Shown here: in pieces, positions 4,379 through 28,492 of the stretch
How positions within the stretch are numbered: the first letter of the stretch is position 1
Layout: each line of letters begins with the position of its first letter
Source of the DNA: a bacterium
GTDB taxonomy: Archaea; Thermoplasmatota; E2; JACPAO01; JAHFTW01
Assembly (NCBI GenBank): GCA_040390065.1
Contig: JAZJZE010000011.1
Coordinates: 96,001-160,000 of the forward strand
DNA length: 64,000 nt
Reading direction: 5' to 3'
Notes under the pieces: model-generated
What the model was told of the DNA's origin: nothing
The model's input: only the letters and a program-made list of their open reading frames with translations
Databases searched by the model: none
Translations under genes and position numbers: made by a program

Positions 4379-4379
4379 A

Positions 4380-5326: not shown

Positions 5327-6414
5327 GGCGACACCTCGCGGGCGCGAAGCGCGTTGCGTGATAGCGTGAACCAAACGCGGTACCCGGTTTGCTCGAAGAG
5401 GTGCGTGACCGTTTCGACGTAGTACGTGCCGCTGAACCGTTCGCCCACTCCCCGCAAAGCCACCGTGCGGTGGGCGCGCAGGACGGCGCGGTAGACGGCC
5501 GGCTCCAGTTCGCCTTCGGCGGTGAGCGAGACGGCGGACACGTCGACCGTGGCCTGCGCCCAGCGGCGCAGCTCGGCCTGGTCGACCAATCCGGATCTGG
5601 AGAGGAGCATGGTGCGCGCGGCGCCACCGATGAGTGTCGACTCTTCGCCGAGTGCGGGGCGCGAGGTGCGGTCCTGTGCGCCCTCCTGAACTTCGAGGGT
5701 TGCAATGCGAATTGACCGTGCCGTCGCCGCCGCCGGGCGCAGCAGATCATGCCGGATGCGTAGCGACAGAAGGGAGCTCGCTTCTCCGCGAGCCATCTGA
5801 AGAACGCCTTGCGGGCGTGCGTCAAATGCCGGCGCGTGGAAGTGCCCCTTGATGGTGCCCGAGGAGGGGTCTTTCTCGACGTAGCATTCGAAGCCGTTTC
5901 GCGTCGCCAGTTGGCGTAGGAACTGCAAATCGGTGCCATGCTGTGTGGTCACACGCTCGGTCGCGGGCTGCGCGGCTTCGGTCTCGTTGACCACGGGATC
6001 CATTTGGGCTGCCCTGAAGATGGCCGCAGCGATGTCGCCATCCGTCCGGTCGGGCCAAGGCCGGGCCTTGTCCTCGAGCTGCAGGCGCACGGAAGGGTCC
6101 ATGCATGTCACCTCGACCGAGCAGAGCCCGGTTTCGCGCGGGAAGGCGACCTGGACATCGACGACGTGGCCATGGAATATGCTTTCGAAGGTGCGCCCGA
6201 TTTGGGCCTCGACATCGACTTGCGCGAGCCTGCCCATACGCCCGCCTTCCAGGAGAGCCCACACGGGATCCGCTCCGTTCGCGTCGGCGGCAAACGTTAG
6301 GCGAGCCATGGAGGTCAAGCGCGACTGGTCCTCGACCTCGACGCTTGTAAGCGATGATGTGGCCTCATCGTCCAGCGGCTGGCCTTCAAGCAGGACTCGG
6401 TAGCCGACGCGCAA
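5323..6414 (-). CDS. Phage late control D / gp27-like baseplate hub (N-terminal half of VgrG/Afp8)
   Basis: 363 aa. Q..TDLQFLRQLATRNGFECYV and LRGVGERFSGTYYVETVTH motifs. Confidence 0.88.
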   Translation of the reverse strand: MRVGYRVLLEGQPLDDEATSSLTSVEVEDQSRLTSMARLTFAADANGADPVWALLEGGRMGRLAQVDVEAQIGRTFESIFHGHVVDVQVAFPRETGLCSVEVTCMDPSVRLQLEDKARPWPDRTDGDIAAAIFRAAQMDPVVNETEAAQPATERVTTQHGTDLQFLRQLATRNGFECYVEKDPSSGTIKGHFHAPAFDARPQGVLQMARGEASSLLSLRIRHDLLRPAAATARSIRIATLEVQEGAQDRTSRPALGEESTLIGGAARTMLLSRSGLVDQAELRRWAQATVDVSAVSLTAEGELEPAVYRAVLRAHRTVALRGVGERFSGTYYVETVTHLFEQTGYRVWFTLSRNALRAREVSP

Positions 6415-6416
6415 GG

Positions 6417-6707
6417 CTACCGCCCCCCGCGCGGGATGTGCAGCCGGCGCCCTTCGCCAGCAAGGTCACCAGGCCAGAGCGCAGCGTTCGCGTCGGCGAT
6501 GCGCCACCACTGCGTGGGGTCGGCCATGAACCGTTGAGCTATGTGGTCGAGGCGCTCGCCGGGGGCCACCATGTGCTGTTCCTGGTGGCCGTCGAGTGGG
6601 GGGCGCCGGAACCGGATCCCGGGATACGGGTGCTCTTGGCCGTCCTCATCCATGTATCCAAGCTCCGCAACGCCATGGTAGCGGCTCTCCTTACCAACGC
6701 CCTTCAC
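6417..6707 (-). CDS. LysM-like / tail-X small protein (Afp7 C-terminal-like)
   Basis: 96 aa. HMVAPGERLDHIAQRFMADPTQWWRIADAN...GRRLHIP. Confidence 0.85.
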   Translation of the reverse strand: MKGVGKESRYHGVAELGYMDEDGQEHPYPGIRFRRPPLDGHQEQHMVAPGERLDHIAQRFMADPTQWWRIADANAALWPGDLAGEGRRLHIPRGGR

Positions 6708-7381
6708 TGGGGAAGCACCCCCGCGACGTACCTGGTGCCATCGGAGGAGTACGGCTGGCCGGCCACAATCTCCCGGTTGCGCACGTGGCCGCGGAAGGCC
6801 AAATGGCCAATCCCTTGGGCGGCAAGCTCGCGACCGCTGAGCATCTCGAGGTTCAAGGAGACCTCCACGAGGAGGGGGTTGAAGCGGGCGTCATGGAGTG
6901 TCTCCTCGGCCGCAACGTCCAAGACCTTCACTGGAACGACGCGGTTCGGCCCCAGGACGAGCAGGACGAGGGGCACGTGGAAGGCAAACGGGTTGACGTG
7001 CCCCTGGGAGGCTTCGGACCTGGCGCGCTCTAGTTCGTCGCTCGACGGAGACACGAGCATCTGTAATCGCGCCAGTGCGGGCAGCATCCCGAAACGCGAG
7101 ACGCCGTCCCCGTTGTTCGATGTCTCTTTCAGCTCCGCGGCGTCGAGGCGGATGCGCAGGCTGATGGTCTCGGACGGAGGGCCGGCCACGCGCAGGGAGT
7201 CCTGCGGCGACTCCTGCGATCCAGCGGAGTCGTTGCGTCGGACCGACCAACTGACGGTGTCCGGATTGTATTGGAACGGCATGACCGTGGGCGGGGTGCC
7301 TGGCTTGTCGACCACGTACGTGACGAGGGCACCCTTGACGAGGGCAAGGTGCTTTGGGGAGTCCACGGACATTGGGGACAT
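6704..7381 (-). CDS. CIS tube-initiator protein (Afp7 N-terminal-like)
   Basis: Start reassigned to ATG 7381 (TGATG overlap). KGALV...FQYNPDTV, ETISLRIRLDA, PLVLLVLGPNRVVPV...EETLHDARFNP. Confidence 0.8.
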   Translation of the reverse strand: MSPMSVDSPKHLALVKGALVTYVVDKPGTPPTVMPFQYNPDTVSWSVRRNDSAGSQESPQDSLRVAGPPSETISLRIRLDAAELKETSNNGDGVSRFGMLPALARLQMLVSPSSDELERARSEASQGHVNPFAFHVPLVLLVLGPNRVVPVKVLDVAAEETLHDARFNPLLVEVSLNLEMLSGRELAAQGIGHLAFRGHVRNREIVAGQPYSSDGTRYVAGVLPQ

Positions 7382-7563
7382 CACGTCCCTCCACGCTGGC
7401 GGCGGCCGGCGCTCAGTACGGACGTTGTAACGGCGTGCGTGATGGCCGCCCTGGCGTGGGTGGGCCCGCCGTCGCGCAGGGCCGACGCAACCGCCTTTGC
7501 CACCGCGCGCTGCATGTCGCTCTTGCCCGCCCCGTAGGCCACCCGGATTTGGCCGATGCGCAC
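7381..7563 (-). CDS. Small eCIS-associated hypothetical protein
   Basis: 60 aa, exactly fills the gap between the ATPase stop (7569) and the tube-initiator start. N-terminal RIGQIRV resembles the IGRV motif ending the 10873-12381 protein. Confidence 0.55.
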   Translation of the reverse strand: MRIGQIRVAYGAGKSDMQRAVAKAVASALRDGGPTHARAAITHAVTTSVLSAGRRQRGGT

Positions 7564-7568
7564 TCGGG

Positions 7569-9665
7569 TCAGGTCTGCGCCCCCTTGGTTGCTCGCCCGG
7601 CCGGCGGTAGGCGGTCCATCTTCTCGAATTCCTGGTCCGTGGAGCGCAGGACGTGGTCCATGGTGACGGTTCCGCCGTCGGCGGCCGCGAGGAAGGCCGC
7701 ATTGAGGGCCGCGTTTCGGATGCTTCCCCCCGCAAGGTCAAGTCGCGCAAGGCGGGCGAAGTCGAGGCCCCGCGTGGGGACGGCCTTGCCGAAGGACCGC
7801 ATCCAAATGCGGTTGCGCAGCTCGGGGCCCGGGGTGGGGAAGTCGACGACGAATCGAAGGCGCCGCAGGAACGCGCGGTCGATGTCCGCTTTGCGGTTGG
7901 TCGCTAGGATGGCAAGCCCATGGTAGTCTTCCATGCGCTGCAGGAGGTAGTCAATCTCGAGGTTGGCATACCGGTCGTGACTGTCGCGTACCTCGGACCG
8001 CTTTCCGAAGATGGCGTCGGCCTCATCGAAGAAAAGTATGCAACCCGCGCGTTCGGCACCGTCAAAGACGCGCTCCAGGTTCTTTTCCGTCTCGCCGATG
8101 TACTTGCTCACCAAGGCCGCGACGTTGACTTTCTGCATCGTCAGGCCTAGGGTGTGGGCCAGGACTTCGGCTGCGAGGGTCTTGCCAGTCCCGCTTGACC
8201 CCGAGAACAGGGCCGTGATGCCGCGGCCGCGCGGCCCACGGGCCATGCCCCATGCACCGTACACCAGGGCGCGCGAGCGGACCTGGTCCACAATCGCTTG
8301 GAGATTTCGACGGCAGGTTTCGGGGACCTCGAGATCGTCCCATCCATGCACCGGTTCGATGGGCGTGGCCAGGCCCCGCAACGCCGACGCTGCTTGTTCG
8401 TAGCAGGCCCTCCGGAGGGCGTCCGCCTCGACGACGGCGGGACCGGACGGGTTCGCGGCGCGCGCCGAGGCGACAACCGCAGCGATCTCGCTCGGGCTCA
8501 GGCGAAGGCTGTGAGCGAGATCTTTGATTGTATCGGCTTGGGCGTCGGCAGCCTCGCCGAGCACGAGTCGCCATTGTTCCGCTTGGTCGTCGGGGCTTGG
8601 GGGTGCCAGGGATACGAGGACTGCCGCACTCCCCGGACGCCAGACACCAGTTCCGGTGGCGACGGCTAGCCGGGGGCTGGCGTAGGCGAGGTCGGACCAG
8701 GCCAGTCCGGGCCCGCCTTCCTTGGTCTCAATCGCGTAGGCAACCGAATGGAGAAGGGCGTGCCGGCGCAGCGCGGCAAGGGCGGCGCGACGCTGCAGGA
8801 ACTCTGCCGGCACGGCGCCCGTATCGATGAGGCGCAGTGACAGGCCGAGCTGGTCAGCCACGTGGGCTGCCACGTCTAGCACGCCACTTGCCGCCGGGCC
8901 GGTAACCACGAGGGCGCGCATGCCGGAGCGGCGCAGGGCGCCCGCGCCCTCCGCGGCCTTCTGACGCTGCGCGCGGGCGAGGGATTGGCACACGATTGGC
9001 GTCGTGAAGGCTTCAATCTCGGCCGGGGGCATCGTTTCGCCGAGAAGAAAAGCGAATGCCGAGTCGTCGAGGACAAAACCGCACGTCGGCGACGTGGGAT
9101 CCCCCACGACCGAGACTAGACCGTTCCACCGCAGGGGACTGGACGCAGCAAAACCCAGGGGCCTCGCCGCCTCCGGAAACAGCGCTGCCGCGAGGGCGGG
9201 CGTCGGATACGGAAGGGCTGCATCGTCATTTGCGTAGGCAAGCAGGCGCGCGACGGCAGGGTCCAGGCGGCCCGCGAGGCAGAGGGCGAGCACTTTGCGG
9301 TCGAAGGCATCGAGGCCTACGCATGCGCACAGCTGGTCGAGCTCGCGGGACGGTGCAGCCGTCGGCCCAACGGCATCGGCATCAAGGGCGGCAAGTTTGC
9401 GGCCGACGCCGGCGGCTGGCTCGGTGGCGAACAAGGCACGGCGCCGCTCCTCAAGGGGGCCGGCCAGGATTTGGTCGATGCTTGCGTCAGTGAGGACGCC
9501 GCTGCCAGACCGCGCCAAGGGATCTTCGCTCCAAAGGCTGCGCAGCCACAGGATGTGCCGGTGAAGCAACAGCCGCGCGCGTTCTGATTCTACGACGCGC
9601 CAATCCCGGGGCGTGGCCGTCTTTGCCACCGTGATGAGGGACACGCCGTTCGATGACGACCTCAC
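7569..9665 (-). CDS. AAA+ ATPase (Afp15/Pvc15-like)
   Basis: Walker A GSSGTGKT, VSKYIGETEKNL, Walker B ILFFDEADAIFGKR, DRYANLEIDYLLQRME, AFLRRL. Start reassigned to GTG 9665 (GTGA overlap). Confidence 0.93.
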   Translation of the reverse strand: MRSSSNGVSLITVAKTATPRDWRVVESERARLLLHRHILWLRSLWSEDPLARSGSGVLTDASIDQILAGPLEERRRALFATEPAAGVGRKLAALDADAVGPTAAPSRELDQLCACVGLDAFDRKVLALCLAGRLDPAVARLLAYANDDAALPYPTPALAAALFPEAARPLGFAASSPLRWNGLVSVVGDPTSPTCGFVLDDSAFAFLLGETMPPAEIEAFTTPIVCQSLARAQRQKAAEGAGALRRSGMRALVVTGPAASGVLDVAAHVADQLGLSLRLIDTGAVPAEFLQRRAALAALRRHALLHSVAYAIETKEGGPGLAWSDLAYASPRLAVATGTGVWRPGSAAVLVSLAPPSPDDQAEQWRLVLGEAADAQADTIKDLAHSLRLSPSEIAAVVASARAANPSGPAVVEADALRRACYEQAASALRGLATPIEPVHGWDDLEVPETCRRNLQAIVDQVRSRALVYGAWGMARGPRGRGITALFSGSSGTGKTLAAEVLAHTLGLTMQKVNVAALVSKYIGETEKNLERVFDGAERAGCILFFDEADAIFGKRSEVRDSHDRYANLEIDYLLQRMEDYHGLAILATNRKADIDRAFLRRLRFVVDFPTPGPELRNRIWMRSFGKAVPTRGLDFARLARLDLAGGSIRNAALNAAFLAAADGGTVTMDHVLRSTDQEFEKMDRLPPAGRATKGAQT

Positions 9666-10870
9666 GGCAGGTCGACCTCCCTGGGGGTGAGGCATTCGGC
9701 GCCGCCGACGCGCACCCGCACGGTGGTAGGGCCGCTTGTTCCCTTGCCAGGAAGCCGGATGCGCAGGGCGCCTTTGGCTGGGGACGTGACGTTGCCGGCC
9801 GGTACAGCGGTCTCGCCAAGCAGGACCTGCGTTTCCTCCTGGGAGGACGCGAGCATGTCGCCTTCGATTACCAGGGCGCCGTTGTCCAGACGCGCGTCGA
9901 CGATCGTGGGGACCACGACAAGGCCCGCATGGTTCGAGCAAAATTGCAGGGGCTTGCCGCGCTTGCCCCGAGGGAGGTCCGGGGCGAACGGGGCGCTTAC
10001 GTAGACCGTGCGCGGCCCCGGCTCCAGGCCGGCATTGCGGGGAACAGAAACGGTGATGCGGTTTCCAGCGTCCGACACGACGGCGCCCGTAACCCGGACG
10101 TCTCCAAGCCAGACCTCCAAGCCGTTCGCGCCGAAGCCGGAACCCGTGACGACGAGCGTGTCCCCGGCCTGGACCCAAGGGGACGGGGAGGGCGGATCGG
10201 TTGCGGGGCGGTCGCGGCGCCGGACGGCGACGGCTGTAATGCGCGGCCGCACCAGAGGAGCGACGACGACGCGCGGGCCGGCCGTTTGGACGCCCTTCTC
10301 GAAGCGCGGCGCCGCCACGAGCCGAGGGAAACGGCGCGCCAGCTGACTGTTCAGGAGCACTACGGAGATCATGTACGATGCCGAGAGGCGATGCGTCGTG
10401 GCCAAGGCCTGCCAGACGGAAGACGCCTGATCGACACCCAAGGGTTCCAGCGTAATGCGCAACGCTTCCGGCATCTGCTGCAGGTCGTCGTCGAGCACGT
10501 CCTCGACATTGGCGTCGCCAGGATGGAGGATGGCGTTGTCATGCAGGGCACGCATGGCGTCGCCGAGGATGCGGTGCGCCGCCAGGGAATCCTCGTCGCT
10601 GTCGCCGTAGGCCGTGAGGAGGTAGTGAAGGTCGAGCGACAGGGCAGGCCGGCCATAGGACGCGGGGTGCGCCTGCGGCGACACGTCGCGATTTGCAAGG
10701 AAGGCGTTGCGCCCCACATGGTACAGGTAGATGTTGAGGCGCCGACCGGAGACGTCCCCCACGGGCACCGCCGGTGACGTGATGGTGATTGGAACCTTGT
10801 CGTCCATGGCCTTGAGAAGAAGGCGGCGTAGGGTCCCACTCACTGCTGCCAACGCGTTTGATGAGCTCAC
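9662..10870 (-). CDS. DUF4255 / Afp16-Pvc16-like tail terminator with C-terminal IPT/TIG-like domains
   Basis: SNALAAVSGTLRRLL, RLNIYLYHV..N, LSLDLHYLLTAYG, HRILGDAMRALHD, SASY; the C-terminus has GDTLVVTGSGFG Ig-like repeats. Confidence 0.88.
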   Translation of the reverse strand: MSSSNALAAVSGTLRRLLLKAMDDKVPITITSPAVPVGDVSGRRLNIYLYHVGRNAFLANRDVSPQAHPASYGRPALSLDLHYLLTAYGDSDEDSLAAHRILGDAMRALHDNAILHPGDANVEDVLDDDLQQMPEALRITLEPLGVDQASSVWQALATTHRLSASYMISVVLLNSQLARRFPRLVAAPRFEKGVQTAGPRVVVAPLVRPRITAVAVRRRDRPATDPPSPSPWVQAGDTLVVTGSGFGANGLEVWLGDVRVTGAVVSDAGNRITVSVPRNAGLEPGPRTVYVSAPFAPDLPRGKRGKPLQFCSNHAGLVVVPTIVDARLDNGALVIEGDMLASSQEETQVLLGETAVPAGNVTSPAKGALRIRLPGKGTSGPTTVRVRVGGAECLTPREVDLP

Positions 10871-10872
10871 GG

Positions 10873-12381
10873 CTATCCTCCCTCCATGGGCCAGCGGCCG
10901 TTGTGGCGGGCCTCGGCAAAGGTATCGAATCCCGTGGCGGTGGCGCGGCGGCGGGGCGCTGGGACGGGTGGAGATTCGAGGGTGACGCGGCCAATCTCGA
11001 CGCGAATCTCGGGCTTCGACGGCGGCAACTGGGGTGCCGGCGACGGCCAGATCGCCTGCGACGGTGTGGGCTGCAGCGTCGCGAGGGAATCGGTTGCGAC
11101 GGCCTCATCCCTCCCGGCCGTGCGCGCTTCTCCGATAGACTTGGCAGGTGGCACGGCGGCCGGCGCCGCCCGCCGGAGGACGGAGGCGGGCGTGCGCTCG
11201 CCGTGTGCCTGCCCCTTCCGTGGATGGTGCGCCGGTCCTGCTTCCTGGGTCAACGGCGCCGCGGTCAGGGCTGGGGTGGCGGGCTCTGCGGCCGGCACGG
11301 CCGGCGTGGCGCTTGGCTGGACCATGACGCGGGGCGGCTGCGGAGCAGTATCGGAGCGGCTGGACCTGCCCCGTTCCATCCGCCGGAAGACCATGCCGGC
11401 CTGCCTCGCCGCGGCCGCCGGCGGTGTGCCGCCCCCTCGTGCCAGGCGAGCAGGCAGATCATGTGTCGCGCGCGCCTTCGCGGTTACAGCGGAGCGTTCT
11501 GTCGTTGGGGTCTGCTCCTTCTCGTCTGGGCGGCGGACGGCCGGCCGGTTCTTGCCCGAGACGGCCTTCGGTGTCGCGCGCAACGCCTGGCGCCGGGCAA
11601 CAGAATCCTCCGTCGTGACGTCGGGCGCCGGCGAGGGCGCATCGATGGGACCATGCGGTGGCATCGGGGTCGGCGCTGCCCGCGGCGCCGATTGCTCCGT
11701 CATCCGGGCCGTCGAGCGCTGGTCCTGCGCAATGCTCTGCGGTCCGCGCGCGGAAGGGCGAATGGCCACTTGCTGCGCCCCTGACCGGGATAGCCCGCCC
11801 GTCTTGTGCGTGGGAGAAGGAGATTGGGGCGGGGCGTCCTCCCAAGGTGGGCCCTGGTCCGGCGGCGCGGCGAGGGACGATGGCGAGGCGACGAGTCGCC
11901 TCGTGGCCAGCGGCACCCGGGAGGTCGTCGGCGCCACCCACCCACTCGCGGCCGACGGCGCGTGTGCCTGGGGGGCGGGCGTAACCGGTTCGGACCTTGT
12001 CGCTTGCATGGGCCGGGCAGGCGGGGGAGCATGGCCGGGTGCTGTCCGAAGCCGGGCGGACGAGGGGGCGTGTGCCAAATGCGGCACGGGCGGGTCTTCC
12101 GGATTCTTCCTCCGCGGTTGACCGGCGGTCCGGGGCTGCTTCCCACTCACCTCCACACCGGTGGCATTCGCCGCCGGGCGCCGGGGTTGAACGGGGGCGT
12201 CGATTGGCCCCGGCAGCGCCGCCACACCGGCCGGGAGAGCAGGGTGGTCTGCGTCACCCGGAAAGGCTGGAATCGCAGGGTCGTGCGCCGTCCACGCGGG
12301 GGCCGAAAGCGGTGGCAGGCGCAGCGGGAGGCCGCCACCGTCGACACCGCGTTGCGCAAGCCGCACGAGAAACCCGTTCAC
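10873..12381 (-). CDS. Pro/Ala-rich low-complexity eCIS protein (possible tape-measure equivalent)
   Basis: Start GTG 12381 (GTGA overlap), MNGFLVRLAQRG. About 500 aa, mostly disordered, ending PEIRVEIGRVTLE. In operon register with neighbours. Confidence 0.65.
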   Translation of the reverse strand: MNGFLVRLAQRGVDGGGLPLRLPPLSAPAWTAHDPAIPAFPGDADHPALPAGVAALPGPIDAPVQPRRPAANATGVEVSGKQPRTAGQPRRKNPEDPPVPHLAHAPSSARLRTAPGHAPPPARPMQATRSEPVTPAPQAHAPSAASGWVAPTTSRVPLATRRLVASPSSLAAPPDQGPPWEDAPPQSPSPTHKTGGLSRSGAQQVAIRPSARGPQSIAQDQRSTARMTEQSAPRAAPTPMPPHGPIDAPSPAPDVTTEDSVARRQALRATPKAVSGKNRPAVRRPDEKEQTPTTERSAVTAKARATHDLPARLARGGGTPPAAAARQAGMVFRRMERGRSSRSDTAPQPPRVMVQPSATPAVPAAEPATPALTAAPLTQEAGPAHHPRKGQAHGERTPASVLRRAAPAAVPPAKSIGEARTAGRDEAVATDSLATLQPTPSQAIWPSPAPQLPPSKPEIRVEIGRVTLESPPVPAPRRRATATGFDTFAEARHNGRWPMEGG

Positions 12382-13235
12382 GGCCGACCTCCTTCCATCC
12401 CTTGTCCGTGCAACAAGGCCAAGTACGACTCCCGGCGCCCAGGGGGCATTGCCAGGATGTCGCGCTCCGCCCAATGGTAATGCAAGGCAATCTCATGCAC
12501 TTGGGTTTGCAGCAGGCGGGCGCGTTGCCGCATCTCGCCTAGTACGTAGGCGCCCGCGTCCAACAGCGCCAGGCTCTCACCGCCGCAGGCAGGGCAGGAA
12601 ATCCCCACCATAGTCTCGGCCTGCGGATCCTCGGTAGCCATTGCGTCAGCTAGATGCGCAAGTCTGCGCCTCCCCCGAGCGCCCTGGAAGGAAGGAACCC
12701 GCCCCCCTTTGCCCGGGACGATGCATCGTCGCGCGATTTCCAGGGCTGCCCGCTGAGGGTCATGGCGGGCCACGGCGGCAACCGCCTCCTGATCCTCACC
12801 GGTTGGAAGCCGGAATTCCATGACGGGAAGGCTGTTGCGCCGTGTGCGAAGCGGCGGCGCGGCAACGGTCTTTGTCGATAGGAGCTGCATCGCGTCAATC
12901 TCGACGTCGATGGCTTGGCCACACGTCGGCTGCGGACACTCGACCTTGCTCTGAACCAAGGAGCCGCAGGCCAGGATGCGCAGGCGCAGCAGGAGTGCCT
13001 CCCGGTCGCCGACCGTCAGCCGACTTGCTATTGCCGGCGTGACCGGGGCGACATCGCCGATGCGAACGACGCAACGGGCAAGGAATCCCGACACCTGGCG
13101 CGCCATGGGAAGTCCGGCCACGTCCTGCGCGTACACTTCGTCGAGACCGCTGGGGGCGACGATGCTTGCGGTCCGATGGCACGTCTCGTCGACCCACAGG
13201 CCGGCGGGCAGCGTGACCGCCTCGATGCGCGTCAT
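12378..13235 (-). CDS. T4 gp26-like baseplate / tail assembly chaperone
   Basis: LTVGDREALLLRLR, CPQPTCG, FRLPTGEDQ, CPACG, VHEIALHYHWAERDILAMP..RR..YL. Confidence 0.82.
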   Translation of the reverse strand: MTRIEAVTLPAGLWVDETCHRTASIVAPSGLDEVYAQDVAGLPMARQVSGFLARCVVRIGDVAPVTPAIASRLTVGDREALLLRLRILACGSLVQSKVECPQPTCGQAIDVEIDAMQLLSTKTVAAPPLRTRRNSLPVMEFRLPTGEDQEAVAAVARHDPQRAALEIARRCIVPGKGGRVPSFQGARGRRRLAHLADAMATEDPQAETMVGISCPACGGESLALLDAGAYVLGEMRQRARLLQTQVHEIALHYHWAERDILAMPPGRRESYLALLHGQGMEGGRP

Positions 13236-13237
13236 GG

Positions 13238-13783
13238 TCAGTTGGCGGGCTCGGCGTACGACGTCTCGTCAGGCTGGCCGACGGTGTAGTCGCGCTCCCA
13301 TCCTTCGTTCTCGAGCTTGATGGTCGAGATGAGAACGGCGTTGCCACTCGCATCCAAGTCGGCCGTGGCTTGGTACTCGGACACCCAGCAACGGTAGACC
13401 ACGTATGACACGACTTTCTGGCCGGACTCGTTGAAGATATCGATGATGATGTCCTTTCGGAAGTCCTTCAATGACACTTCCTTGCCGCCGTCCGTGTCGC
13501 CGGCCATCGGTCCGCCGTAGTTCCATACCTTGTTGGCCCACTGCTCGAAGTCGATGTCATGCGTTACGCCCCGCTCCAGCGTGATGGCTTCGTACTTGGT
13601 CTGGCCTGGCGTTCGGCGCGCACTGCTCGGATCCGCGCCCTCACGCCAGTCGATGGCTTCCGTGTGACGCTTGAGTGCACCAACCTTGTGGACACCGGCG
13701 ACGTACTTTCCGTCCCACTTGACGCGGAACTTGAAGTTCTTGTATGGGTCGAAGCGCTTTGATTCCGCGGTGAATTGTGCCAT
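13238..13783 (-). CDS. Phage tail tube protein (T4 gp19-like, Afp1/5)
   Basis: Start ATG 13783 with TAAGGAGG RBS. RFDPYKNFKFRVKWDG, WREG, PGQTKYEAITLERGVT, IKLENEGWERD. Confidence 0.95.
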   Translation of the reverse strand: MAQFTAESKRFDPYKNFKFRVKWDGKYVAGVHKVGALKRHTEAIDWREGADPSSARRTPGQTKYEAITLERGVTHDIDFEQWANKVWNYGGPMAGDTDGGKEVSLKDFRKDIIIDIFNESGQKVVSYVVYRCWVSEYQATADLDASGNAVLISTIKLENEGWERDYTVGQPDETSYAEPAN

Positions 13784-13794
13784 GCGTTGCCTCC

Positions 13795-15366
13795 TTAGGT
13801 ATTCTCCTGGTGCGTGTATTGGCTGATCTTGATCACGACGAATTCGGCCGGCTTGAGCGGCGCGAAGCCGACGAGAATGTTGACGATGCCGCGGTCGATG
13901 TCCTCTTGCGGGTTCACCTCGGCGTCGCACTTGACGAAGTACGCTTCGTTGGGCGACGCCCCCTGGAATGCTCCCTGCCGGAACAGGCCATGCATGAATG
14001 TGCCGACGTTGAGGCGGATCTGGGACCACAGCGGCTCGTCGTTTGGCTCGAATACGACCCACTGCGTGCCTCGGTAGAGGCTCTCCTCGATGTAGAGGGC
14101 GGTGCGCCGTACGGGGAGGTACTTCCACTGGTCGGCCAGCTGGTCACGGCCGACGGTGGTGCGGGCTCCCCAAAGGACGGTGCCGGTTGCCGGGAAGGTT
14201 CGGAAGCAGTTCAGGCCAAGCTGGTTTAGCTCCCCTTGTTCCATGTCGGTGAGAGTCGTCGCAATGCCGCTGGCTCCGCGCAGGCGGGCGTCCTGACCGG
14301 CCGGAGCCTTCCAAATGCCTCGGCTAGCGTCGGTGCTGGCGATGATGCCCGCGACCGCGCCGCACGGCGGGAACTCGGCCTCGCGGTTGTCCCGGAGGGG
14401 GTCGGGTGCCTTGATTCGTGGGAAGTAGGCTGCAGCGTCCCTGGTGAGCGTAAAGGCGGGCTTCGGAGTGCCGAGCAGGCCGTCCTTGGCGGTCTTCTTG
14501 TCGTTCCACGGGGCGTCGATGAGGAGGATTGCGCGCCGCTTGCCGCAGTACGTCGCTGCATCGTCCCAGTCTTTTGACGCCAGGGCCACTTCTGCGTTTC
14601 CGCGGGGCAAGCAGAGCAGGTTGAAGATGTCGAGTTTGTCGAGGGCATAGACGCCCGTCGGACTTGCTGCGCCTCCAGGCAAGCCAATAAGGGAGACCGT
14701 GATGTCCACATCTTTCCCCTTGGACAGGCGCTTGTAGGTCGGCACGGCCGGCGGGTTGGCGGGTTTCGGCACGGCGAATTTCTTGGCGGTGTTCCATGTT
14801 GGAACGTCCACAAGGTTGGACTCGTCGTGGAGTACGGCCGGTGCAAAGCGAGGATCCGTGGGCTCGCCGGAAAGGTTGGCGAAGACCTCCTCCCGGAGGA
14901 CCGTCGGTGCTTTTGCCGGGTTGCCCCCGGACGCAATTTCCTGCACATGGAGACTGAAGCGCGGTTGGCCTTGTGGCTGGTCGTGTGGCGGACCCGAGGG
15001 TTCCATCGCAATCTGGAGTTGGTTTCCCCAAGTGCCAGGGCTTCGGGCCTCCACGGGGAAGGCGAACAATGTGGCTTCCGCCGCCGCCGCGCCCGTTTTG
15101 CCGTCGTCGCCGCGACGCACGATGGCGGCCTCGGAGCCGCCGTTCTGGAAGAACTGGTAGACAGCGTGGCCCATGGCCGAGTCGAGGGCCAGGCCGCCAA
15201 AGATTCGCTGGTACTCGCCAAAGTTGTTGACGATTGTCGGTTCTTCAATCGGTCCGCGGGGTGCGAAGCCTACGAAGGCGGTGCGGGAGGTCGCGACGCC
15301 CATGATCGTGCGTACCGGGCTTTCCGTTTCCACGACGTAGACGCCGGGATAGGTCAGTTGCTGCAT
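13795..15366 (-). CDS. Phage tail sheath protein (Afp2/3/4-like)
   Basis: Start ATG 15366, MQQLTYPGVYVVE. GIWKAPAG, LWGART, WKYLPVRR, VFEPNDEPLW, AYFVKCD, GFAPLKPAEFVVIKI. Confidence 0.96.
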   Translation of the reverse strand: MQQLTYPGVYVVETESPVRTIMGVATSRTAFVGFAPRGPIEEPTIVNNFGEYQRIFGGLALDSAMGHAVYQFFQNGGSEAAIVRRGDDGKTGAAAAEATLFAFPVEARSPGTWGNQLQIAMEPSGPPHDQPQGQPRFSLHVQEIASGGNPAKAPTVLREEVFANLSGEPTDPRFAPAVLHDESNLVDVPTWNTAKKFAVPKPANPPAVPTYKRLSKGKDVDITVSLIGLPGGAASPTGVYALDKLDIFNLLCLPRGNAEVALASKDWDDAATYCGKRRAILLIDAPWNDKKTAKDGLLGTPKPAFTLTRDAAAYFPRIKAPDPLRDNREAEFPPCGAVAGIIASTDASRGIWKAPAGQDARLRGASGIATTLTDMEQGELNQLGLNCFRTFPATGTVLWGARTTVGRDQLADQWKYLPVRRTALYIEESLYRGTQWVVFEPNDEPLWSQIRLNVGTFMHGLFRQGAFQGASPNEAYFVKCDAEVNPQEDIDRGIVNILVGFAPLKPAEFVVIKISQYTHQENT

Positions 15367-15594
15367 TGAAACACATCCGCGCCGCCGTGATGGCTGGCGA
15401 CGCGGCGCAGAAAGCCCTGCGGTATTTGGTGGCTTCTCACGAAACGATGGCACAATGCAGCTAGCGGCGGGCGATTGTTCCCACTTCGCGCAAGAAGGAT
15501 TCATTTGCGTCCGTGGCGGGGTCGGGGGACGCAAGCAAGGAAGTTCCCATGTTGCGCGAATTCCGATTATCTTGCCCTGTCGTTTCGTCTGCGC

Positions 15595-16488
15595 ATGCCT
15601 GAGGCTGTGTTGAGGCCGACGCTGCGGCGGGGGTCAAAGGGCCCCTCTGTGACTGAACTCCAAGACGCGCTTAACGGGGCGGGTGCGCAGCCTCCGCTTG
15701 TGCCCGATGGGGACTTCGGTCCCAAGACGTTGGACGCCGTGCTGGCGTTCCAGACGCAGCGGGGACTCGTGGTCGATGGAATCGTTGGCCCCCAGACATG
15801 GGCGGCCCTGGACGGGTCGACTGCGCCGGCGCCACCGACCCCCGTACCGATGCCGCCGAGTCCCATGACCGCTGACTGGACGGTCGTTCCGGCAGACGGC
15901 CGCATGCTCTACGCAATGGAGATTCTCGTGAACGCCTACGGCTATCCGGTCAATGGTGCAGCGGGGCTCGTCGGGAACCTCCACGCAGAATCAGGCGTAA
16001 TCCCGAACCGCCTTGAGGGGAGCCAGGCGGCCTCGCCGATGCGGGCACCCGACTTCGTCGGCCGGCCGGCTGACTTCACGGCCGACCAGGTCATGAACCG
16101 CAACGGCCCAGGGCAACGGGGACCCCGGCTCCCCGGCGTTGGTCTCGCGCAGTGGACGTCAGCCAACCGCCGCGCCGGCCTGTTCGGCCATGCGTTTCGT
16201 GGCATCGTCCTCGGGTCGTCCATTGTCTTCGACATGGATGCGCAGCTGGATTACCTGGTCAATGAACTCGGCGGCTCGTTTGTAGGCGTCAACCAAGTCA
16301 TCCGCAACCCCACCATCGCCGTGGATGCGGCCAGCGACGAAGTCGTGTACCGGTTCGAAGTGCCAGGGGCAGTGCTGGCCAACGGGGCCCTTCTTCCACG
16401 CACGGATCCACGGGTGCAGGCCGTATTCGCGCAGCGCCTGGCGTCGTCCCAGGCTGCGCTCCGGGCGTACCGTGCCGTTCACCCGTGA
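15595..16488 (+). CDS. Peptidoglycan-binding domain + phage tail lysozyme (Phage_lysozyme2-like muramidase)
   Basis: Start ATG 15595. PG_binding_1 motif LRRGSKGPSVTELQ..L...DGDFGPKT..AV.AFQ..RGLVVDGIVGPQTW, then GAAGLVGNLHAES (catalytic Glu), GLAQWT, AQLDYLVNEL, RFEVP. No signal peptide. Confidence 0.85.
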   Translation: MPEAVLRPTLRRGSKGPSVTELQDALNGAGAQPPLVPDGDFGPKTLDAVLAFQTQRGLVVDGIVGPQTWAALDGSTAPAPPTPVPMPPSPMTADWTVVPADGRMLYAMEILVNAYGYPVNGAAGLVGNLHAESGVIPNRLEGSQAASPMRAPDFVGRPADFTADQVMNRNGPGQRGPRLPGVGLAQWTSANRRAGLFGHAFRGIVLGSSIVFDMDAQLDYLVNELGGSFVGVNQVIRNPTIAVDAASDEVVYRFEVPGAVLANGALLPRTDPRVQAVFAQRLASSQAALRAYRAVHP

Positions 16489-16818
16489 ATGGTCGGTCGA
16501 CGACGAGCCAATCGGGAAACTTGGGGGCCGTGGAGGTTCCTTGCCCGGCGCGGGCGGCGCGCCGCCTCCAAAACGTCACACCACGTAGCGCCGGGCCGGC
16601 CGCGATTCGGCACCAGCGACACACGCGGGCTGGGTGTGGCAGGTTGGCTCTCTTCATTTCATCGTCGGCGCTTGCCCAGGCCCGCAACCCTGACCCCTTC
16701 TTGGTTTCAATCCCGTCTGGAGCGTGGGCGGCCGTGGGTCGGCCCATGTCTCGTGAAAAACGTACTTGCGGCGCCTATGCGTGGCATACTTGTGTCACGT
16801 GCAAAGGGCTCGACCGGT

Positions 16819-17331
16819 GTGTCTGAACAACAGAAAATGCTGACCGATGCAGAGGCTTGGATTGCGTGCTTTTACTTCGAGCAATACGTGGTTGCGGGTT
16901 ACGAGCCCCAGATGTTGCCAGCGGGTTTTGTCCGAGCCAGTGCCCTTCAGCTTCTGGAAGGCGTCGCGGCGATGACGCCAGTGCAGTTCGCCGCACTTCG
17001 CGAGGCGCCCAGTCGCTGGCAAAATTATCTCGCCACGTGGCCAGGATTGTCGATGGAGCAACGCGGGCAGGTGCGGGCGGCCTGGAGCGAACGGTGCGGC
17101 TTGGCGGCCTCCAGCGTCGGCACAGCAACGGCGTTGCCTCCGCCGGCGCCAGTCCAGGATCGCGCGCAACGGATCCTTCAGGAAATTCGGGAAGCCGAGG
17201 CGCGCGGCGACCATGCGCGGGCCCGCGCAATTGGGGAAAAATTCGCCGTGGAGAGCCGCGCCCAGCATGTCGGGCACATGAACCTGATGGCGACAATTGC
17301 CAACCCATTGAACCCAACGCGCTACATCTGA
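16819..17331 (+). CDS. Hypothetical helical protein between the two candidate effectors
   Basis: 3' half of ORF 16489-17331 reads like a real protein from GTG 16819 or ATG 16837. No family recognised. Confidence 0.55.
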   Translation: MSEQQKMLTDAEAWIACFYFEQYVVAGYEPQMLPAGFVRASALQLLEGVAAMTPVQFAALREAPSRWQNYLATWPGLSMEQRGQVRAAWSERCGLAASSVGTATALPPPAPVQDRAQRILQEIREAEARGDHARARAIGEKFAVESRAQHVGHMNLMATIANPLNPTRYI

Positions 17332-17469
17332 CGGCGGCCAACTTGGTCTCCAAGAACCCTGCTAGAGAACCTATTCTGGCCGGCAAGGACGTCCGCAGCT
17401 TCGACCTTCGCCTGGGTAGCGACCGGCGCACCCGTCTCTCGTGAGAATCGCCTTTGTACCGGCCGGAGA

Positions 17470-19500
17470 ATGGCCGCAGCCGGCCTCACTATGCCATTCG
17501 AAAGGGCCGCACTCCGACGTGGCTCCGACCCAGCGACGACTGGCAACCACCGTGCTGCGGATGCTCGCCGGCGGCCTGGAATAAGCAACCGGCTCGAGCA
17601 GGACCGGCTTCTCCGGACAGCGGACACGCCTGTCCAAGTCTTGCGTCAATCGTCGCCGCCGACGCCGCAGCCAGGCGAAGAGGAAGCGCAGGCAGAAGTA
17701 CCTCGGACCGTAGCGACGCAAGCGTACGCGACGGACACGGAGGCATCCAATGCCCTGGCCAGGGGCGAAGAAGAGAACGCAGCTCAAGCTCTTCAGAACC
17801 TCCTTGCGGACGCCGACCACCCGGCCGAACTTGAGCGCCTGGCTCGCCACTACCGATACCGGGGCATGATGCTCCGGGGCGCCATAGGCTTGTTGCGCGA
17901 ACTCGCGTTCTGGAGGCAGAACCTACCTGAAAGGCGTCGTCAAGCCTGGAAAATTCTCAACGACCGGGGCCATCAACTTGGTCGACTTCCCATTGCAAAC
18001 CCCGCCGATGAGCTGCTCGACTTGTTGCAGGATCCGGCGGCGCAGGAGCGGGTCCGGCAAGCGACCCAAGTGCGCCGAACCGGGACGGCCGTCCCTCCCG
18101 GCCCCGCCAGGCCGCCCTCCACGTCCGAGCTTGCGCGCATCGCAGCTGCGCGCCGCGACATGCGCGCCGACCTCCTTGGAAGAATGGAGTTCGTGGCCGG
18201 ACGGCGCACTTCCTTGCCGCGGCCCGTCGGCAATCAGCGGCACCACCGAACGCATGACGGCCACGGACCCCGACGCGATGCCCCGGGAGCCGGCTGGACG
18301 ACCCCATGGGTCGATCTCCCGCTCCCGTCGACGGAGGCACAGGGCGCCCGCGACAGGGCTTGGCGTGCGCTCGAGAGGACGGCGGCCGAAAATATTCGAA
18401 CGGACGTCAACGTTTCGATCCTGGAAGCTGACACCGAAGTACGCAGGGTGATGGAAGACCTGCATTGGGACTCTTCCGATTGGCGCTACCGCCTCATCGT
18501 CCAATACTCCGGCGTCCGATACCAATCCGCACACGGAAGTTACCTCTCGCCCAGTCACCTGCTCGATGTGCTCCAGCACACCGAAGCCGGCACCCTTACC
18601 GAGCGGCCGGCACCGAGGCAGCCCCTCGAGGAGGTGGCCCTCGTCAATCCATCTCGGGACGAGGCGGTCGCGGAATTGCGGCGCCTGCGGGCACGCGGCG
18701 CGTTTTCGGATGCCGCCTGGCGAGACATCTTGCTGCGTGGCCATCTGGTTCCTCGCCCCGAGGACCGCCCAGCAATCCAATTGGCGGCTCCTGTGGAGCC
18801 TGCATGGTCCGCGGTCTTCATGCGGTGGGCGCAGGGCCAGACGACGCAGTGGCTGGCCGCGGTCCAGGCAAGCGGGCCCGGTACGATTGTGCTACCGACC
18901 GTCGTTTGCAACCAACTTGCCGAAATCGCACAGAGCTTCAGGGGCAATCAGCTAAGTGGGGGAATCACTGGGGATGCGCGGGACTATGCCGGGCGTGGCC
19001 TGCTCATGCCCGGACGGATGGCACGTCTTGAACCACGCACTTCCGGTCATGGCGTCTTCTTCGTGCACCCGGAATGGCTGGTGGATCGGCCCCCAAGCTA
19101 CTCAGTCGTACTGCTCCCGCCGTCAATATCGTTTGCCAATCTACGTGAGCCGAACGGCGCGGGCGAGCCGGCGGTGCAAAAACCCGGGTGGACGATTGTG
19201 CGCGATGACGGGCCCGTACGCCGGACCAGACTCGGGCCTTCTGGACTAGAAACGGAATGGGCTGCCTGGGCCCACGAAGCAACGGTGCTGGAAGTCATGC
19301 CGACCGGCGTCCTGCTGATGGAGACCACCGATCGGGCCCCGCTGCCCGGCCAGCCGACGCCCAGCGCAGGCGTCACCATGCGAAGCCAAGCCACATTGGC
19401 GGAGTTCAATTCCTATATCGGCTTCGCGGACCCCGCCGTGATCCGACGAGCCAGGAGGCGCCGGCGGTCGCCCGGAGGAGCTCACCGACGAAGTCAGTAA
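17470..19500 (+). CDS. Large hypothetical protein, candidate eCIS cargo with CHAP/NlpC-P60-like C-terminus
   Basis: 676 aa with disordered N-terminus. C-terminal motifs VCNQL, GDARDYA and AHEATVLEVMPTGVLLME resemble CHAP C / GNAxxW / GHVAxVExV..G....E. Confidence 0.6.
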   Translation: MAAAGLTMPFERAALRRGSDPATTGNHRAADARRRPGISNRLEQDRLLRTADTPVQVLRQSSPPTPQPGEEEAQAEVPRTVATQAYATDTEASNALARGEEENAAQALQNLLADADHPAELERLARHYRYRGMMLRGAIGLLRELAFWRQNLPERRRQAWKILNDRGHQLGRLPIANPADELLDLLQDPAAQERVRQATQVRRTGTAVPPGPARPPSTSELARIAAARRDMRADLLGRMEFVAGRRTSLPRPVGNQRHHRTHDGHGPRRDAPGAGWTTPWVDLPLPSTEAQGARDRAWRALERTAAENIRTDVNVSILEADTEVRRVMEDLHWDSSDWRYRLIVQYSGVRYQSAHGSYLSPSHLLDVLQHTEAGTLTERPAPRQPLEEVALVNPSRDEAVAELRRLRARGAFSDAAWRDILLRGHLVPRPEDRPAIQLAAPVEPAWSAVFMRWAQGQTTQWLAAVQASGPGTIVLPTVVCNQLAEIAQSFRGNQLSGGITGDARDYAGRGLLMPGRMARLEPRTSGHGVFFVHPEWLVDRPPSYSVVLLPPSISFANLREPNGAGEPAVQKPGWTIVRDDGPVRRTRLGPSGLETEWAAWAHEATVLEVMPTGVLLMETTDRAPLPGQPTPSAGVTMRSQATLAEFNSYIGFADPAVIRRARRRRRSPGGAHRRSQ

Positions 19501-27074: not shown

Positions 27075-27287
27075 ATGATACTCCTGGCCTGGTGGCTCGG
27101 AAAATATGTGGGCGCCCCTGCCCCCAGGAAGAAATTCTCCAAGCGACGCCGAAAGACCGTCCGCGTCCCAGCGGCCGCCAGCCTGCCCGCGGCCGGACCC
27201 GCCGTTCCGGCAATGCCGCCTCCTCCGACGGTGACCCCCGCAGACCCCTCCTCAAGCCAGGCCCCCCGCGGGCAGAAGGAAACCTGA
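27075..27287 (+). CDS. Small basic/Pro-rich hypothetical protein
   Basis: 70 aa; its stop overlaps the recombinase ATG (TGATG). Could be non-coding. Confidence 0.3.
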   Translation: MILLAWWLGKYVGAPAPRKKFSKRRRKTVRVPAAASLPAAGPAVPAMPPPPTVTPADPSSSQAPRGQKET

Positions 27288-28492
27288 TGCCAACGATGGG
27301 ACTCGGGCTGCAGAAACACCTCATGACGAAGTTCTTGGAACGCCGAGGCATCGACCCCCAAACCGTCGACCTCGATGCCCTCCTTGACGCCTCGTTGTCA
27401 TTCAAAGAGAACCGAGCCAACCTCGCCGCACACCTACAGCTGCCAGGCGATTGGCAGAAATGGGAAGCCGAAGACCGCGCAGACGAAGCGGCCCCTCCGG
27501 CCCAAGTGCAACCGACAGGTTTCGGGGCCTTCGTGCCCCCGCCAAAACCGGTCCACGATCCGTCAGAGCGCGCCGCCTACGCCGGCCTGTCACCCGATGT
27601 AGCGGCCGAGTCCCTAGCCAAGACGATGGCCGAGCGCCGAAGCATTCGCGCCGTCACGCTGCGGCAGAAGACCATCATCCTCCGAGCCATCCTCAAGGAC
27701 CTCGCCCAACGTGGACTCGACCTTGCCACACTAACGCCACCGGACGTCGCGTTGTACCGGGAATACCTGAAGGACCGCGTCACCAGGGGCGACCTTGCAA
27801 CCAGCTCCGCCAGCCACCGCGCGAAGGTCCACAACAGCACGATGCGCCTAGTCTTCGACGACGAAACCCTCACGATGCGCGGATTCGCGGAACACCCGCG
27901 CCTCGTGGACCACCTCACCGAAGCCCAGTTCAGCATGCTGCTAACCGTCATCCACGACTACCCCGCCTTCAACGACCACGACGTCCTGCTGATGATTGCC
28001 TACCTGCATCTCGAATGGAGCATCGGGGCCCGCATCGGCAGCCTCGCCCCAGGACGCCTCGAGGTCGGCGACTTCGACTTCGAAGTCGGCGTCGTGCACC
28101 TGCGCTACATGAAAAACAAGGCCTCCCACACCGCCATCCTCTCCGACACCGCCGTCCGGGAGGCCAAGGAATGGATTGACACCATCAAGGGCGACCCCGC
28201 ATGGAAGGGCGACGCCACCCCATTCTTCATTCATTCCGACGGGAGCCTCGTGCAACCGGCCTGGTTCAACAAACACCTCAAGGCCCTTGGAAAGCTGGCC
28301 GGCATCCAGCAGAAGCTCACCACCCACGTCTTGCGAAAATCGGTCGGCACCATCCTCGCGAAAGTCAATCCGAAGTTCGCCGAGCAGCAACTCGGCACCA
28401 GCAGCCGCGTCTTTCACGAACACTCCAACCAAATGTCCCTTCAAGACCGCCAAGACCTGCGCCACCTCTTGCCCCGGACCGGCCGCGAATGA
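27287..28492 (+). CDS. Tyrosine recombinase/integrase-like protein (catalytic Tyr apparently absent)
   Basis: Start ATG 27287. GARIG (R), MKNK (K), THVLRKS (HxxR); the last box reads QLGTSSRVFHEHS instead of LGH...Y. Confidence 0.82.
   Translation: MPTMGLGLQKHLMTKFLERRGIDPQTVDLDALLDASLSFKENRANLAAHLQLPGDWQKWEAEDRADEAAPPAQVQPTGFGAFVPPPKPVHDPSERAAYAGLSPDVAAESLAKTMAERRSIRAVTLRQKTIILRAILKDLAQRGLDLATLTPPDVALYREYLKDRVTRGDLATSSASHRAKVHNSTMRLVFDDETLTMRGFAEHPRLVDHLTEAQFSMLLTVIHDYPAFNDHDVLLMIAYLHLEWSIGARIGSLAPGRLEVGDFDFEVGVVHLRYMKNKASHTAILSDTAVREAKEWIDTIKGDPAWKGDATPFFIHSDGSLVQPAWFNKHLKALGKLAGIQQKLTTHVLRKSVGTILAKVNPKFAEQQLGTSSRVFHEHSNQMSLQDRQDLRHLLPRTGRE

Follow-up and report, generated by a model that had tools for sequence, protein, structure and literature searches.

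A predicted cysteine hydrolase of papain-like fold beside a contractile injection operon in an archaeon of the Thermoplasmatota

Cargo proteins of extracellular contractile injection systems (eCIS) have been described as consisting of a disordered, system-specific N-terminus that is needed for loading, an optional DUF4157 domain, and a variable effector (10.64898/2026.05.27.728243); DUF4157 is reported to be dispensable for loading (10.64898/2026.05.27.728243; PMC11297309), and the genes of such variable cargo usually lie beside the conserved structural operon (PMC8213781; 10.64898/2026.05.27.728243). A comparable arrangement is found in a 64-kb stretch of an archaeal genome (positions 96,001–160,000 of contig JAZJZE010000011.1, hereafter the window), in which a gene on the + strand at 17470..19500 encodes a protein of 676 aa next to a complete eCIS operon. 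The protein is labelled P0001, its genome G000, and its contig C11; relatives of the protein are numbered as P00xx and loci as L0xx, and G007 denotes a genome of the same genus. On balance, the P0001 gene is read as genuine and as acquired by horizontal transfer, with its place in the variable flank of the archaeal eCIS, and its product as a predicted cysteine-hydrolase cargo that is likely directed against bacterial walls. Four observations carry this reading: the predicted fold of the C-terminal domain, the conservation of three residues, the position of the gene next to the eCIS, and the N-terminal modules of eCIS type in its relatives.

Among the described systems, the eCIS-associated toxins (EATs) with DUF4157 (Geller 2021, Danov 2024, and Cgo1 and Cgo2 of AlgoCIS; PMC8213781; PMC11297309; 10.64898/2026.05.27.728243) resemble P0001 in their position at the edge of an eCIS and in pairing a non-globular N-terminal part with a variable enzyme at the C-terminus, and the nearest relatives of P0001 bear DUF4157; P0001 itself, however, has neither DUF4157 nor a recognisable leader, and its domain is not among the Pfam toxin domains named in the accessible portions of those articles. 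The amidase effectors Tae and Tse1 (3vpi, 4hz9) of type VI secretion systems (T6SS) similarly combine a papain-like fold of NlpC/P60 type with contractile delivery and the killing of bacteria, and they match the model of P0001 at Z 7.0. In contrast to these small, single-domain proteins with cognate immunity genes, P0001 measures 676 aa, no conserved immunity-like gene was found among its neighbours, and its producer is without penicillin-binding proteins (PBPs). A published account of an eCIS cargo of NlpC/P60 type was not found at the level of titles, where the literature on contractile injection and NlpC effectors concerned T6SS and other work and the family itself was not searched for.

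Bacteria-killing peptidoglycan (PG) hydrolases of archaea (Strock et al. 2025, PMC12352652) provide a further comparison, since there, as in the host of P0001, an archaeon without murein possesses PG-directed enzymes. In the accessible sections of that article, archaeal PG hydrolases without a signal occur somewhat more often in genomes that have a sheath (P=0.059), and their delivery by contractile injection systems (CIS) is raised as a possibility and called untested; the PG-related genes of the present locus differ in that they physically adjoin a CIS. Because the survey, as described in those sections, used known PG hydrolase domains, a Pfam-invisible domain of the P0001 type would presumably be missed by it. 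Moreover, a sheath-dependent secretion of DUF4157 proteins is reported for haloarchaea, with other archaea as the targets (PMC11566945), which makes archaeal CIS cargo of the general type of P0001 plausible.

The protein family and its predicted fold

The reading frame of P0001 scores highest of all six in a codon model trained on long host open reading frames (ORFs), at -75.6 against -182 to -586. In the database record returned by a word-index search, the protein starts at residue 141 and has 536 aa; collinear alignments to its relatives begin upstream of this point, at P0001 residue 124 for P0006 and 117 for P0007, so that the true start is placed upstream of residue 141, at or near 17470, where GGAGA stands immediately 5' of the ATG at an unusually short spacing. 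At the other end, residues 657–676 (19438–19497) form a poly-Arg tail (RRARRRRRSPGGAHRRSQ) past the end of the alignments to relatives.

P0001 was called an orphan in a preliminary description of this DNA. With regard to close relatives the term holds, as the word-index search returned P0001 only, but an exhaustive HMMER search of 1.84 billion representatives gave 53 proteins at E<=1e-3, namely P0001 and 52 distant relatives. Judged from sequence, the body of P0001 (residues 117–656) belongs to a nameless and otherwise bacterial family; each of ten relative clusters checked for names is either a 'hypothetical protein' or nameless. The nearest relatives, P0006 and P0007, are both DUF4157 proteins and align collinearly with P0001 residues 124–653 (31% identity, E 1e-52) and 117–653 (29% identity, E 5e-45), respectively. 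In a species-level scan with one genome per species, 163 relatives were found and 79 loci were kept, of which the leader-bearing ones belong to three Solirubrobacteraceae, one Chloroflexia, and one Micromonospora, and the remainder almost entirely to Anaerolineales and other Chloroflexota. The family so defined, with its 52 representative clusters and its matches in species-representative genomes, is nameless but widespread.

Conservation was assessed in an alignment of 52 rows, comprising P0001 residues 300–676 and the C-terminal regions of 51 relatives, with one of the 52 relatives left out for want of a qualifying stretch. The ORF and the residues on which the preliminary description had built its proposal (Cys480, GDARDYA, His602, and Glu618) are present where they had been placed. 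Cys480, the proposed nucleophile (18907..18909, +), lies within TVVCNQL and is invariant in 52/52 rows, as is Trp461. His602, the proposed general base (19273..19275, +), is retained in 50/52 rows, and at position 618, the proposed third member of the triad (19321..19323, +), 45 of 49 rows have Glu, 3 have Asp, and 1 has His; both His602 and Glu618 lie inside AHEATVLEVMPTGVLLME. With few exceptions, the homologs keep the residues of the proposed triad. Arg491 and Arg585 are found in 51/52 rows each, Thr619 is kept in 49/49 rows, and in the central block YSGVRYQSAHGSY, whose conserved portion GVRYQSAHGS spans residues 348–357 (18511..18540, +), each of G348, Y351, and H355 is conserved in 48/48 rows. 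GDARDYA (residues 501–507), which had been likened to the GNAxxW motif, is present in P0001 but only loosely kept across the rows as GG[LI]T.[KN][AP].W[YF], with K in 28, N in 19, and D in 3 rows at position 502, A in 24 and P in 20 at position 503, and Y in 38 and F in 10 at position 506.

An AlphaFold2 (AF2) model of residues 301–676, computed from a 53-row alignment, reached a predicted local distance difference test score (pLDDT) of 84.9 and a predicted template modelling score (pTM) of 0.82; modelling from the single sequence was poor throughout (pLDDT 35.9) and unusable, and is therefore uninformative about disorder at the N-terminus. In the alignment-based model, residues 301–656 (18370..19437, +) form a predicted papain-like domain of NlpC/P60-CHAP type. 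Cys480 heads a helix (180–190 in model numbering), His602 is near the start of a strand (299–310), and Glu618 is in the next strand (313–320); a Cys that starts a helix, a His on one strand, and an acidic side chain on the strand after it make up the catalytic layout of NlpC/P60 and CHAP proteins. Conservation and, in the predicted model, fold accordingly support the earlier proposal of a cryptic hydrolase domain that is papain-like and has a triad of Cys, His, and Glu.

Two large insertions interrupt the modelled domain and explain why it is hidden from sequence profiles. The first, which is helical, covers residues ~360–470 (~110 residues) and separates the GxRYxSAHGS block from the Cys helix; the second covers ~533–598, between the 'GVFFV' strand (528–532) and the His strand (599–610). 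The long insert before the His that had been noticed from the sequence therefore exists, but measures ~65 aa in the model and not ~90.

Comparison of the model by VIA-align with 48,161 chains returned 19 chains at Z>=8. The first 32 rows have Z 9.7–7.5 and a root-mean-square deviation of 2.5–4.9 A over 96–134 aligned residues, and by title most of them are cell-wall hydrolases of NlpC/P60 or CHAP type. The best match, 7cfl_A, aligns 122 residues at 2.8 A on a chain of 127 aa (i.e., the whole domain), with a Z of 9.7 that is only modestly above the best Z of 7–8 typical of unmatched models; other top matches are MepS 8xud_I (9.3), 4xcm_B (9.3), 5t1q_A (8.7), and 2k3a (8.7). The weight of the fold match thus rests on the uniformity of the match list and the whole-domain coverage, and not on Z alone. 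The same 32 rows also contain the trypanothione/glutathionylspermidine amidases 2vpm (Z 7.9) and 3a30 (Z 7.6) and a few entries of odd or unclear title (the 'bacterial peptidase' 7v6s, the diffocin baseplate 8v3w, and the staphyloxanthin biosynthesis protein 2lrj), and lower rows hold C39 peptidases (Z 7.4–6.7), Tse1, Tae3, pseudomurein endoisopeptidase, and CdiA-CT toxins (Z 6.5, 6.3).

The earlier expectation that AlphaFold and Foldseek would yield a papain-like fold was borne out by the AF2 model and the VIA-align matches but not by Foldseek, which gave nothing at E<=0.001 against PDB and BFVD; its weak top rows include many CHAP, C39, NlpC/P60, amidase, and endolysin entries. Searches of P0001 against Pfam and NCBIfam gave no match at E<=1, hence neither PF00877 nor PF05257, and a sequence-profile search of the PDB returned coiled-coil noise only (best E 0.058). 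A capsid-like identity suggested by ESM Atlas features (scores 0.91) was dropped, as such scores are within the range of noise.

In relation to known enzymes, P0001 is in its modelled structure most like the NlpC/P60 DL-endopeptidases and amidases (PF00877; Acd24020 of C. difficile, 7cfl; MepS of E. coli, 8xud; and 4xcm of T. thermophilus), with Z 9.7–9.3 over 120–124 aligned residues, which take in nearly all of the catalytic domain, and the same order of a Cys on a helix, a His on a strand, and a polar residue on the next strand. It differs from them in the absence of sequence-profile similarity, in the ~110-aa and ~65-aa insertions, in having Glu as the third residue, and in that its domain terminates a helical body of ~300 aa with a conserved N-terminal motif of its own. 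To CHAP amidases/peptidases (PF05257; 5t1q of S. aureus, 2k3a of S. saprophyticus, and the phage lysins 5d74 and 4olk) the Z values are 8.7–7.1. Two further likenesses to CHAP are the Cys-His-Glu composition with 16 residues from His to Glu, and the position of the loose GG[LI]T.[KN][AP].W[YF] stretch after the Cys helix, where CHAP has GNAxxW. The GxRYxSAHGS block, on the other hand, looks nearer to the lead-in of NlpC/P60, and we take it to be the equivalent of the NlpC/P60 motif GxPYxWGG. The CHAP assignment made earlier is supported as to an NlpC/P60-CHAP fold, but CHAP membership is not claimable for P0001, which has no PF05257 match and for which CHAP (Z 8.7) and NlpC/P60 (Z 9.7–8.8) are tied within 1. 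The suggestion that the central YSGVRYQSAHGSY block is another domain is not supported, because the structural alignments to NlpC/P60 mostly start at model residues 27–41 and therefore span the block, which is probably the N-terminal lead-in of the same fold. Overall, the modelled domain is best described as a strongly diverged papain-like domain of NlpC/P60-CHAP type and a predicted cysteine amidase or peptidase; as current profile libraries miss it, library-based surveys would undercount hydrolases of this type.

The injection locus, its host, and the relatives of the family

The neighbouring operon is complete, of Afp/PVC-like type, and located on the minus strand at 1602..15534, from where it continues past the window start. 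Its genes, all recognised by Pfam and all on the minus strand, encode the sheath (13795–15534), the tube (13238–14128), a T4-baseplate-like protein (12378–13235), a Pvc16_N tail terminator (9662–10870), an AAA+ ATPase (7569–10178), a GPD hub (5323–6414), a spike OB domain (4712–5374), gp25 (4001–4378), and Baseplate_J (1602–4004); in whole-genome family searches, each of the eCIS markers tested occurs in one copy in G000. Beyond the window start, the operon includes Baseplate_J, a DUF6519/beta-helix fibre-like protein, a DUF4157+OmpA protein, and a PG_binding_1 protein, and this extension of the locus before the window is L007 10671–20000, i.e., G000:C11:86671–96000.

The P0001 gene is transcribed divergently from the sheath gene, the two starts being 1.9 kb apart. 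Between them on the + strand are a PG_binding_1 + Phage_lysozyme2 gene (15595..16488; Pfam 63 and 50.1 bits, above cut-off), for whose product a signal peptide is not evident, and an open frame at 16489..17331, of which probably only the later part is coding, as indicated by the frame/GC pattern; the latter has no Pfam or NCBIfam match, and neither the 79 relative loci nor the rest of G000 contain a homologue of it. PG_binding_1 has two matches in G000, and these flank the eCIS (window 15640–15810; C11:86254–86424) and belong to mutually related proteins (93 bits). A 32.9-kb contig of Logan, built from what is probably the source run, covers 13000–19940, from the sheath gene to P0001, with 0 differences, so the adjacency of P0001 and the eCIS is not peculiar to one assembler, though the underlying data are the same. 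This run is the sole data set listed as containing the stretch, and none of RNA is listed.

That P0001 is an eCIS cargo, as had been suggested from the sequence, is backed both by this operon and by the N-termini of its relatives. DUF4157 (PF13699, the 'eCIS core domain') is at the N-terminus of 12/52 relatives, and a GNxAxxRLL-type leader alone is found in 10 others, so that 22/52 carry an eCIS-type N-module. Pvc16_N was tested in the genomes of 50/79 loci, the omitted loci being for the most part those on short contigs or a genome's second locus, and was found in 7/50 genomes, comprising 5/5 leader-bearing ones and 2/45 others; these counts are not independent, as three of the five leader-bearing genomes belong to one family (Solirubrobacteraceae). 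The leader is visible in L008, L010, L011, and L028, and in L009 is deduced from the tblastn span. The P0001 window is the one place seen where a member of the family adjoins an eCIS. The family is tied to eCIS by DUF4157/leader fusions, by co-occurrence of the leader with an eCIS, and by direct adjacency in the P0001 locus. A phmmer comparison of 13 eCIS and flank proteins with the 79 loci (<=10 kb of flank on each side) gave one AAA match and, lacking a sensitivity control, shows little. Clustering of neighbours in the 79 loci yielded nothing beyond synteny within lineages (a PD40 propeller, an M23-containing protein, pterin genes, and zf-HC2), and no clear functional partner of the family emerged from it.

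A canonical NlpC/P60 domain occurs ~21 kb from Pvc16_N on the same contig in three Solirubrobacteraceae genomes (G061:C39:278446–278772, G063:C1:468595–468921, and G062:C24:161657–161984; frames of 383–2074 aa), and cell-wall hydrolases at eCIS edges may be recurrent in this bacterial lineage.

Contig C11 is archaeal. On both sides of the window it encodes aMBF1, PAN, a type II methionyl aminopeptidase, an ORC1-type replication protein, and the archaeosine enzyme TgtA, all above the curated cut-offs of NCBIfam. G007, the genome of the same genus, has a collinear eCIS whose surroundings include genes for citrate synthase, FtsZ, Sua5, and DUF531. Pvc16_N is present in 3/60 relatives of G000. No other member of the P0001 family was found in these 60 relatives or in 400 further genomes of the phylum (162 genera). 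A PBP transpeptidase gave no match in G000 (89% complete), and Mur-ligase gave a single match, as it did in the two archaeal control genomes that matched.

Two minor observations concern the DUF4157+OmpA protein of G000 (L007 10671–12509, -). Its N-terminus, which reads 'SNQFNLRRLQAKL...EADMLADRVMRM', is like a DUF4157 lead-in with Ser replacing the Gly of the GN motif; P0001 also has Ser (ISNRL), a resemblance that is anecdotal and not significant. The best match to this protein in G007 (65.9 bits) is L117 8784–12860 (G007:C1:313784–317860, +), an open frame that follows the ATPase gene within the structural operon instead of standing at its distal end.

Loading, substrate, and alternative readings

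As a wall-directed eCIS cargo, P0001 would be loaded into the tube via its non-globular N-terminal ~116 residues, helped by the AAA+ ATPase of the operon, and delivered into a bacterial target, where its Cys-His-Glu centre would cut an amide bond, that of a PG stem peptide being the most likely, and where it may act jointly with the neighbouring PG-binding lysozyme. The N-terminal region (residues 1–116; 17470..17817, +) is without a Pfam domain and is a candidate eCIS loading sequence. Residues 1–60 contain 11 Arg and have a net charge of +5, residues 61–116 are acidic (net -9), and 64% of the residues of the region are disorder-promoting; the earlier remark that the first ~60 aa are Arg-rich is confirmed, and the composition is disorder-prone. 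No signal peptide or hydrophobic N-terminus is present, and the first 120 residues have no paralogue in G000. Such an N-terminus is compatible with a disordered, system-specific eCIS loading sequence, although compatibility is not evidence. The family N-module, delimited by the alignments to P0006 and P0007, follows at residues 117–300 (17818..18369, +), with HYRYRGMMLRGAIGLL of P0001 corresponding to the family motif IYPxRExxLRxF and a variable helical linker after the motif; the motif is at or near the N-termini of most relatives, and most relatives without an eCIS-type N-terminus start straight at WQNPxLxxxIYPxRExxLRxF.

With regard to the role of the PG-directed neighbours, self-lysis for particle release is unlikely because the producer is without murein genes, and an anti-bacterial role fits them better. 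A wider proposal, clearly more tentative than the reading of P0001 itself, is that a murein-less archaeon arms its eCIS with wall enzymes of bacterial origin in order to kill bacteria, the armed set being the PG-binding lysozyme, the second PG-binding protein, the DUF4157-OmpA protein, and P0001 as a profile-invisible amidase of NlpC/P60 type from a new family. If true, the locus would give a concrete example of warfare across domains that is waged with a contractile injector; in any event, the locus names specific genes with which the delivery of PG enzymes by the eCIS of a PBP-less archaeal host can be tested.

A number of findings weigh against P0001 being a wall-directed eCIS cargo, and they are considered here together with the alternatives to which they lend themselves. 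The alternative that survives best, although it is on the whole unlikely, retains the fold and the delivery by eCIS and replaces PG as the substrate with one from the interior of the target cell, either a protein or a small-molecule amide, on which P0001 would act as a protease, a deamidase, or an enzyme of transglutaminase-like or glutathionylspermidine-amidase type. The VIA-align matches do include glutathionylspermidine/trypanothione amidases, C39 peptidases, and CdiA-CT toxins; moreover, EAT14, in which DUF4157 is linked to a papain-like, transglutaminase-like domain with Cys-His-Asp, is reported to be toxic inside E. coli and yeast (PMC11297309). P0001 has no PG-binding domain, and most members of its family have no export signal. 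Furthermore, 3/52 relatives (P0020, P0042, and P0052) end in a LuxR/GerE-type helix-turn-helix (HTH) after the papain-like domain, and such fusions are hard to square with a role purely as a secreted hydrolase. Against a substrate of this kind, the highest and most numerous structural matches are to cell-wall hydrolases, and the neighbour of P0001 is a PG-binding lysozyme in a genome whose only PG_binding_1 genes flank the eCIS. In addition, 8/79 relative loci, all from Anaerolineales (L020, L051, L060, L065, L069, L081, L084, and L085), begin with RRDFLK, a twin-arginine-like signal that would point outside the cytoplasm. Apparently, and as far as the N-terminal sequences indicate, the same family body is deployed by Tat export, by eCIS-type leaders, or without a recognisable signal.

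Less probable again is that P0001 is no eCIS cargo, and that the + strand block of the lysozyme gene, the small ORF, and P0001 is an independent mobile insertion whose products have another release route. The leader proposed in the preliminary description (SNRLEQDRLLR/VQVLRQ) fares no better than chance against a profile of 13 GNxAxxRLL leaders from relatives: the N-terminus of P0001 is unmatched by it, the highest-scoring stretch of the frame reaches -1.1 bits (rank 2091/3294) and lies elsewhere, at residues 106–116, and none of the ORFs of G000 exceeds 11.3 bits (E 0.33). DUF4157 (PF13699) is likewise absent from P0001 at E<=1. Since none of the + strand genes of the block is found beside the sheath gene of the collinear G007 eCIS, and PG_binding_1 is not found in the three other eCIS-bearing relatives of G000, the block could be a separate insertion, and it lies in DNA of low GC with an integrase nearby and is transcribed divergently from the structural operon. 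Of four bacterial genomes checked, one has its leader-bearing gene 235 kb from Pvc16 on the same contig, and in three the gene is taken to be on another contig than Pvc16, as the Pvc16 contig lacks it at the coordinates inspected and is of another length than the record of the gene; most family members (Anaerolineales) are without an eCIS-type N-terminus, Pvc16_N occurring in only two of the 45 genomes of this kind, and the family is therefore not intrinsically one of eCIS cargo. An insertion unconnected with the eCIS is nevertheless opposed by three facts: variable cargo beside a conserved operon is usual, with DUF4157 dispensable (PMC8213781; 10.64898/2026.05.27.728243); relatives bear eCIS-specific N-modules at the same position; and P0001 offers no signal peptide or hydrophobic N-terminus for another export route.

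It is improbable that the gene, once transferred from bacteria, is now only a remnant, in decay or silent, that has no present function in the archaeon. In favour of such a remnant, the codon use of P0001 is atypical (GC content at third codon positions, GC3, of 0.70 against 0.85–0.92 in nearby host-type genes), which also counts against the wall-directed cargo favoured above; P0001 is the sole member of the family among 401 genomes of the phylum and 61 close relatives (G000 included in both), it has lost the DUF4157/leader module present in its nearest relatives, and it ends in the odd poly-Arg tail. Decay is opposed by a frame that is intact over 676 codons and keeps every residue counted as invariant in the family (W461, C480, R491, R585, H602, T619, and H355), and by a neighbouring eCIS operon that is also intact.

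The fold evidence has its own weak points, namely the modest excess of the best Z over that of unmatched models, a probability of 0.4% in an hhalign comparison of the family with 12 NlpC/P60 domains from five bacterial genomes, and the closeness in space of Cys480, His602, and Glu618, which is derived from secondary-structure positions only. The least probable alternative gives the conserved Cys and His a structural or metal-binding role and sees in the domain a binding module that has a papain-like scaffold but no catalytic activity. It draws on the use of such positions instead of three-dimensional distances, on the further invariant His (H355), and on the missing sequence-profile link to active families. 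Against it, the single invariant Cys at a helix N-terminus, followed by His and an acidic side chain on two consecutive strands, corresponds to the catalytic layout of this fold, and no second conserved Cys is available for a metal site.

Further features of the window

The block described above belongs to a low-GC accessory stretch at 12–30 kb of the window (GC 0.58–0.65 against 0.67–0.71 elsewhere). On the far side of this stretch is a tyrosine recombinase/integrase gene (27092..28492, +; Pfam Phage_integrase, 53.2 bits), and the same stretch contains a gene for a two-transmembrane effector of defence-system type with SLATT_3 and SLATT_1 (21574–22473, -). Scans for promoters and terminators gave nothing useful, and Rfam has zero matches within the window. 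Past the distal end of the eCIS, at a distance of ~5 kb, an RHS-repeat protein of 1989 aa (L007 27–5996, +) is a candidate polymorphic toxin. A gene at ~19830–21200 (+) encodes a Cys-rich protein with a signal-peptide-like start and without a Pfam match; because of its host-type GC3 (0.92) and its two paralogues on contig C1 (636 and 357 bits), it is regarded as host DNA, and Logan contigs fragment across it, as they would across a repeat.

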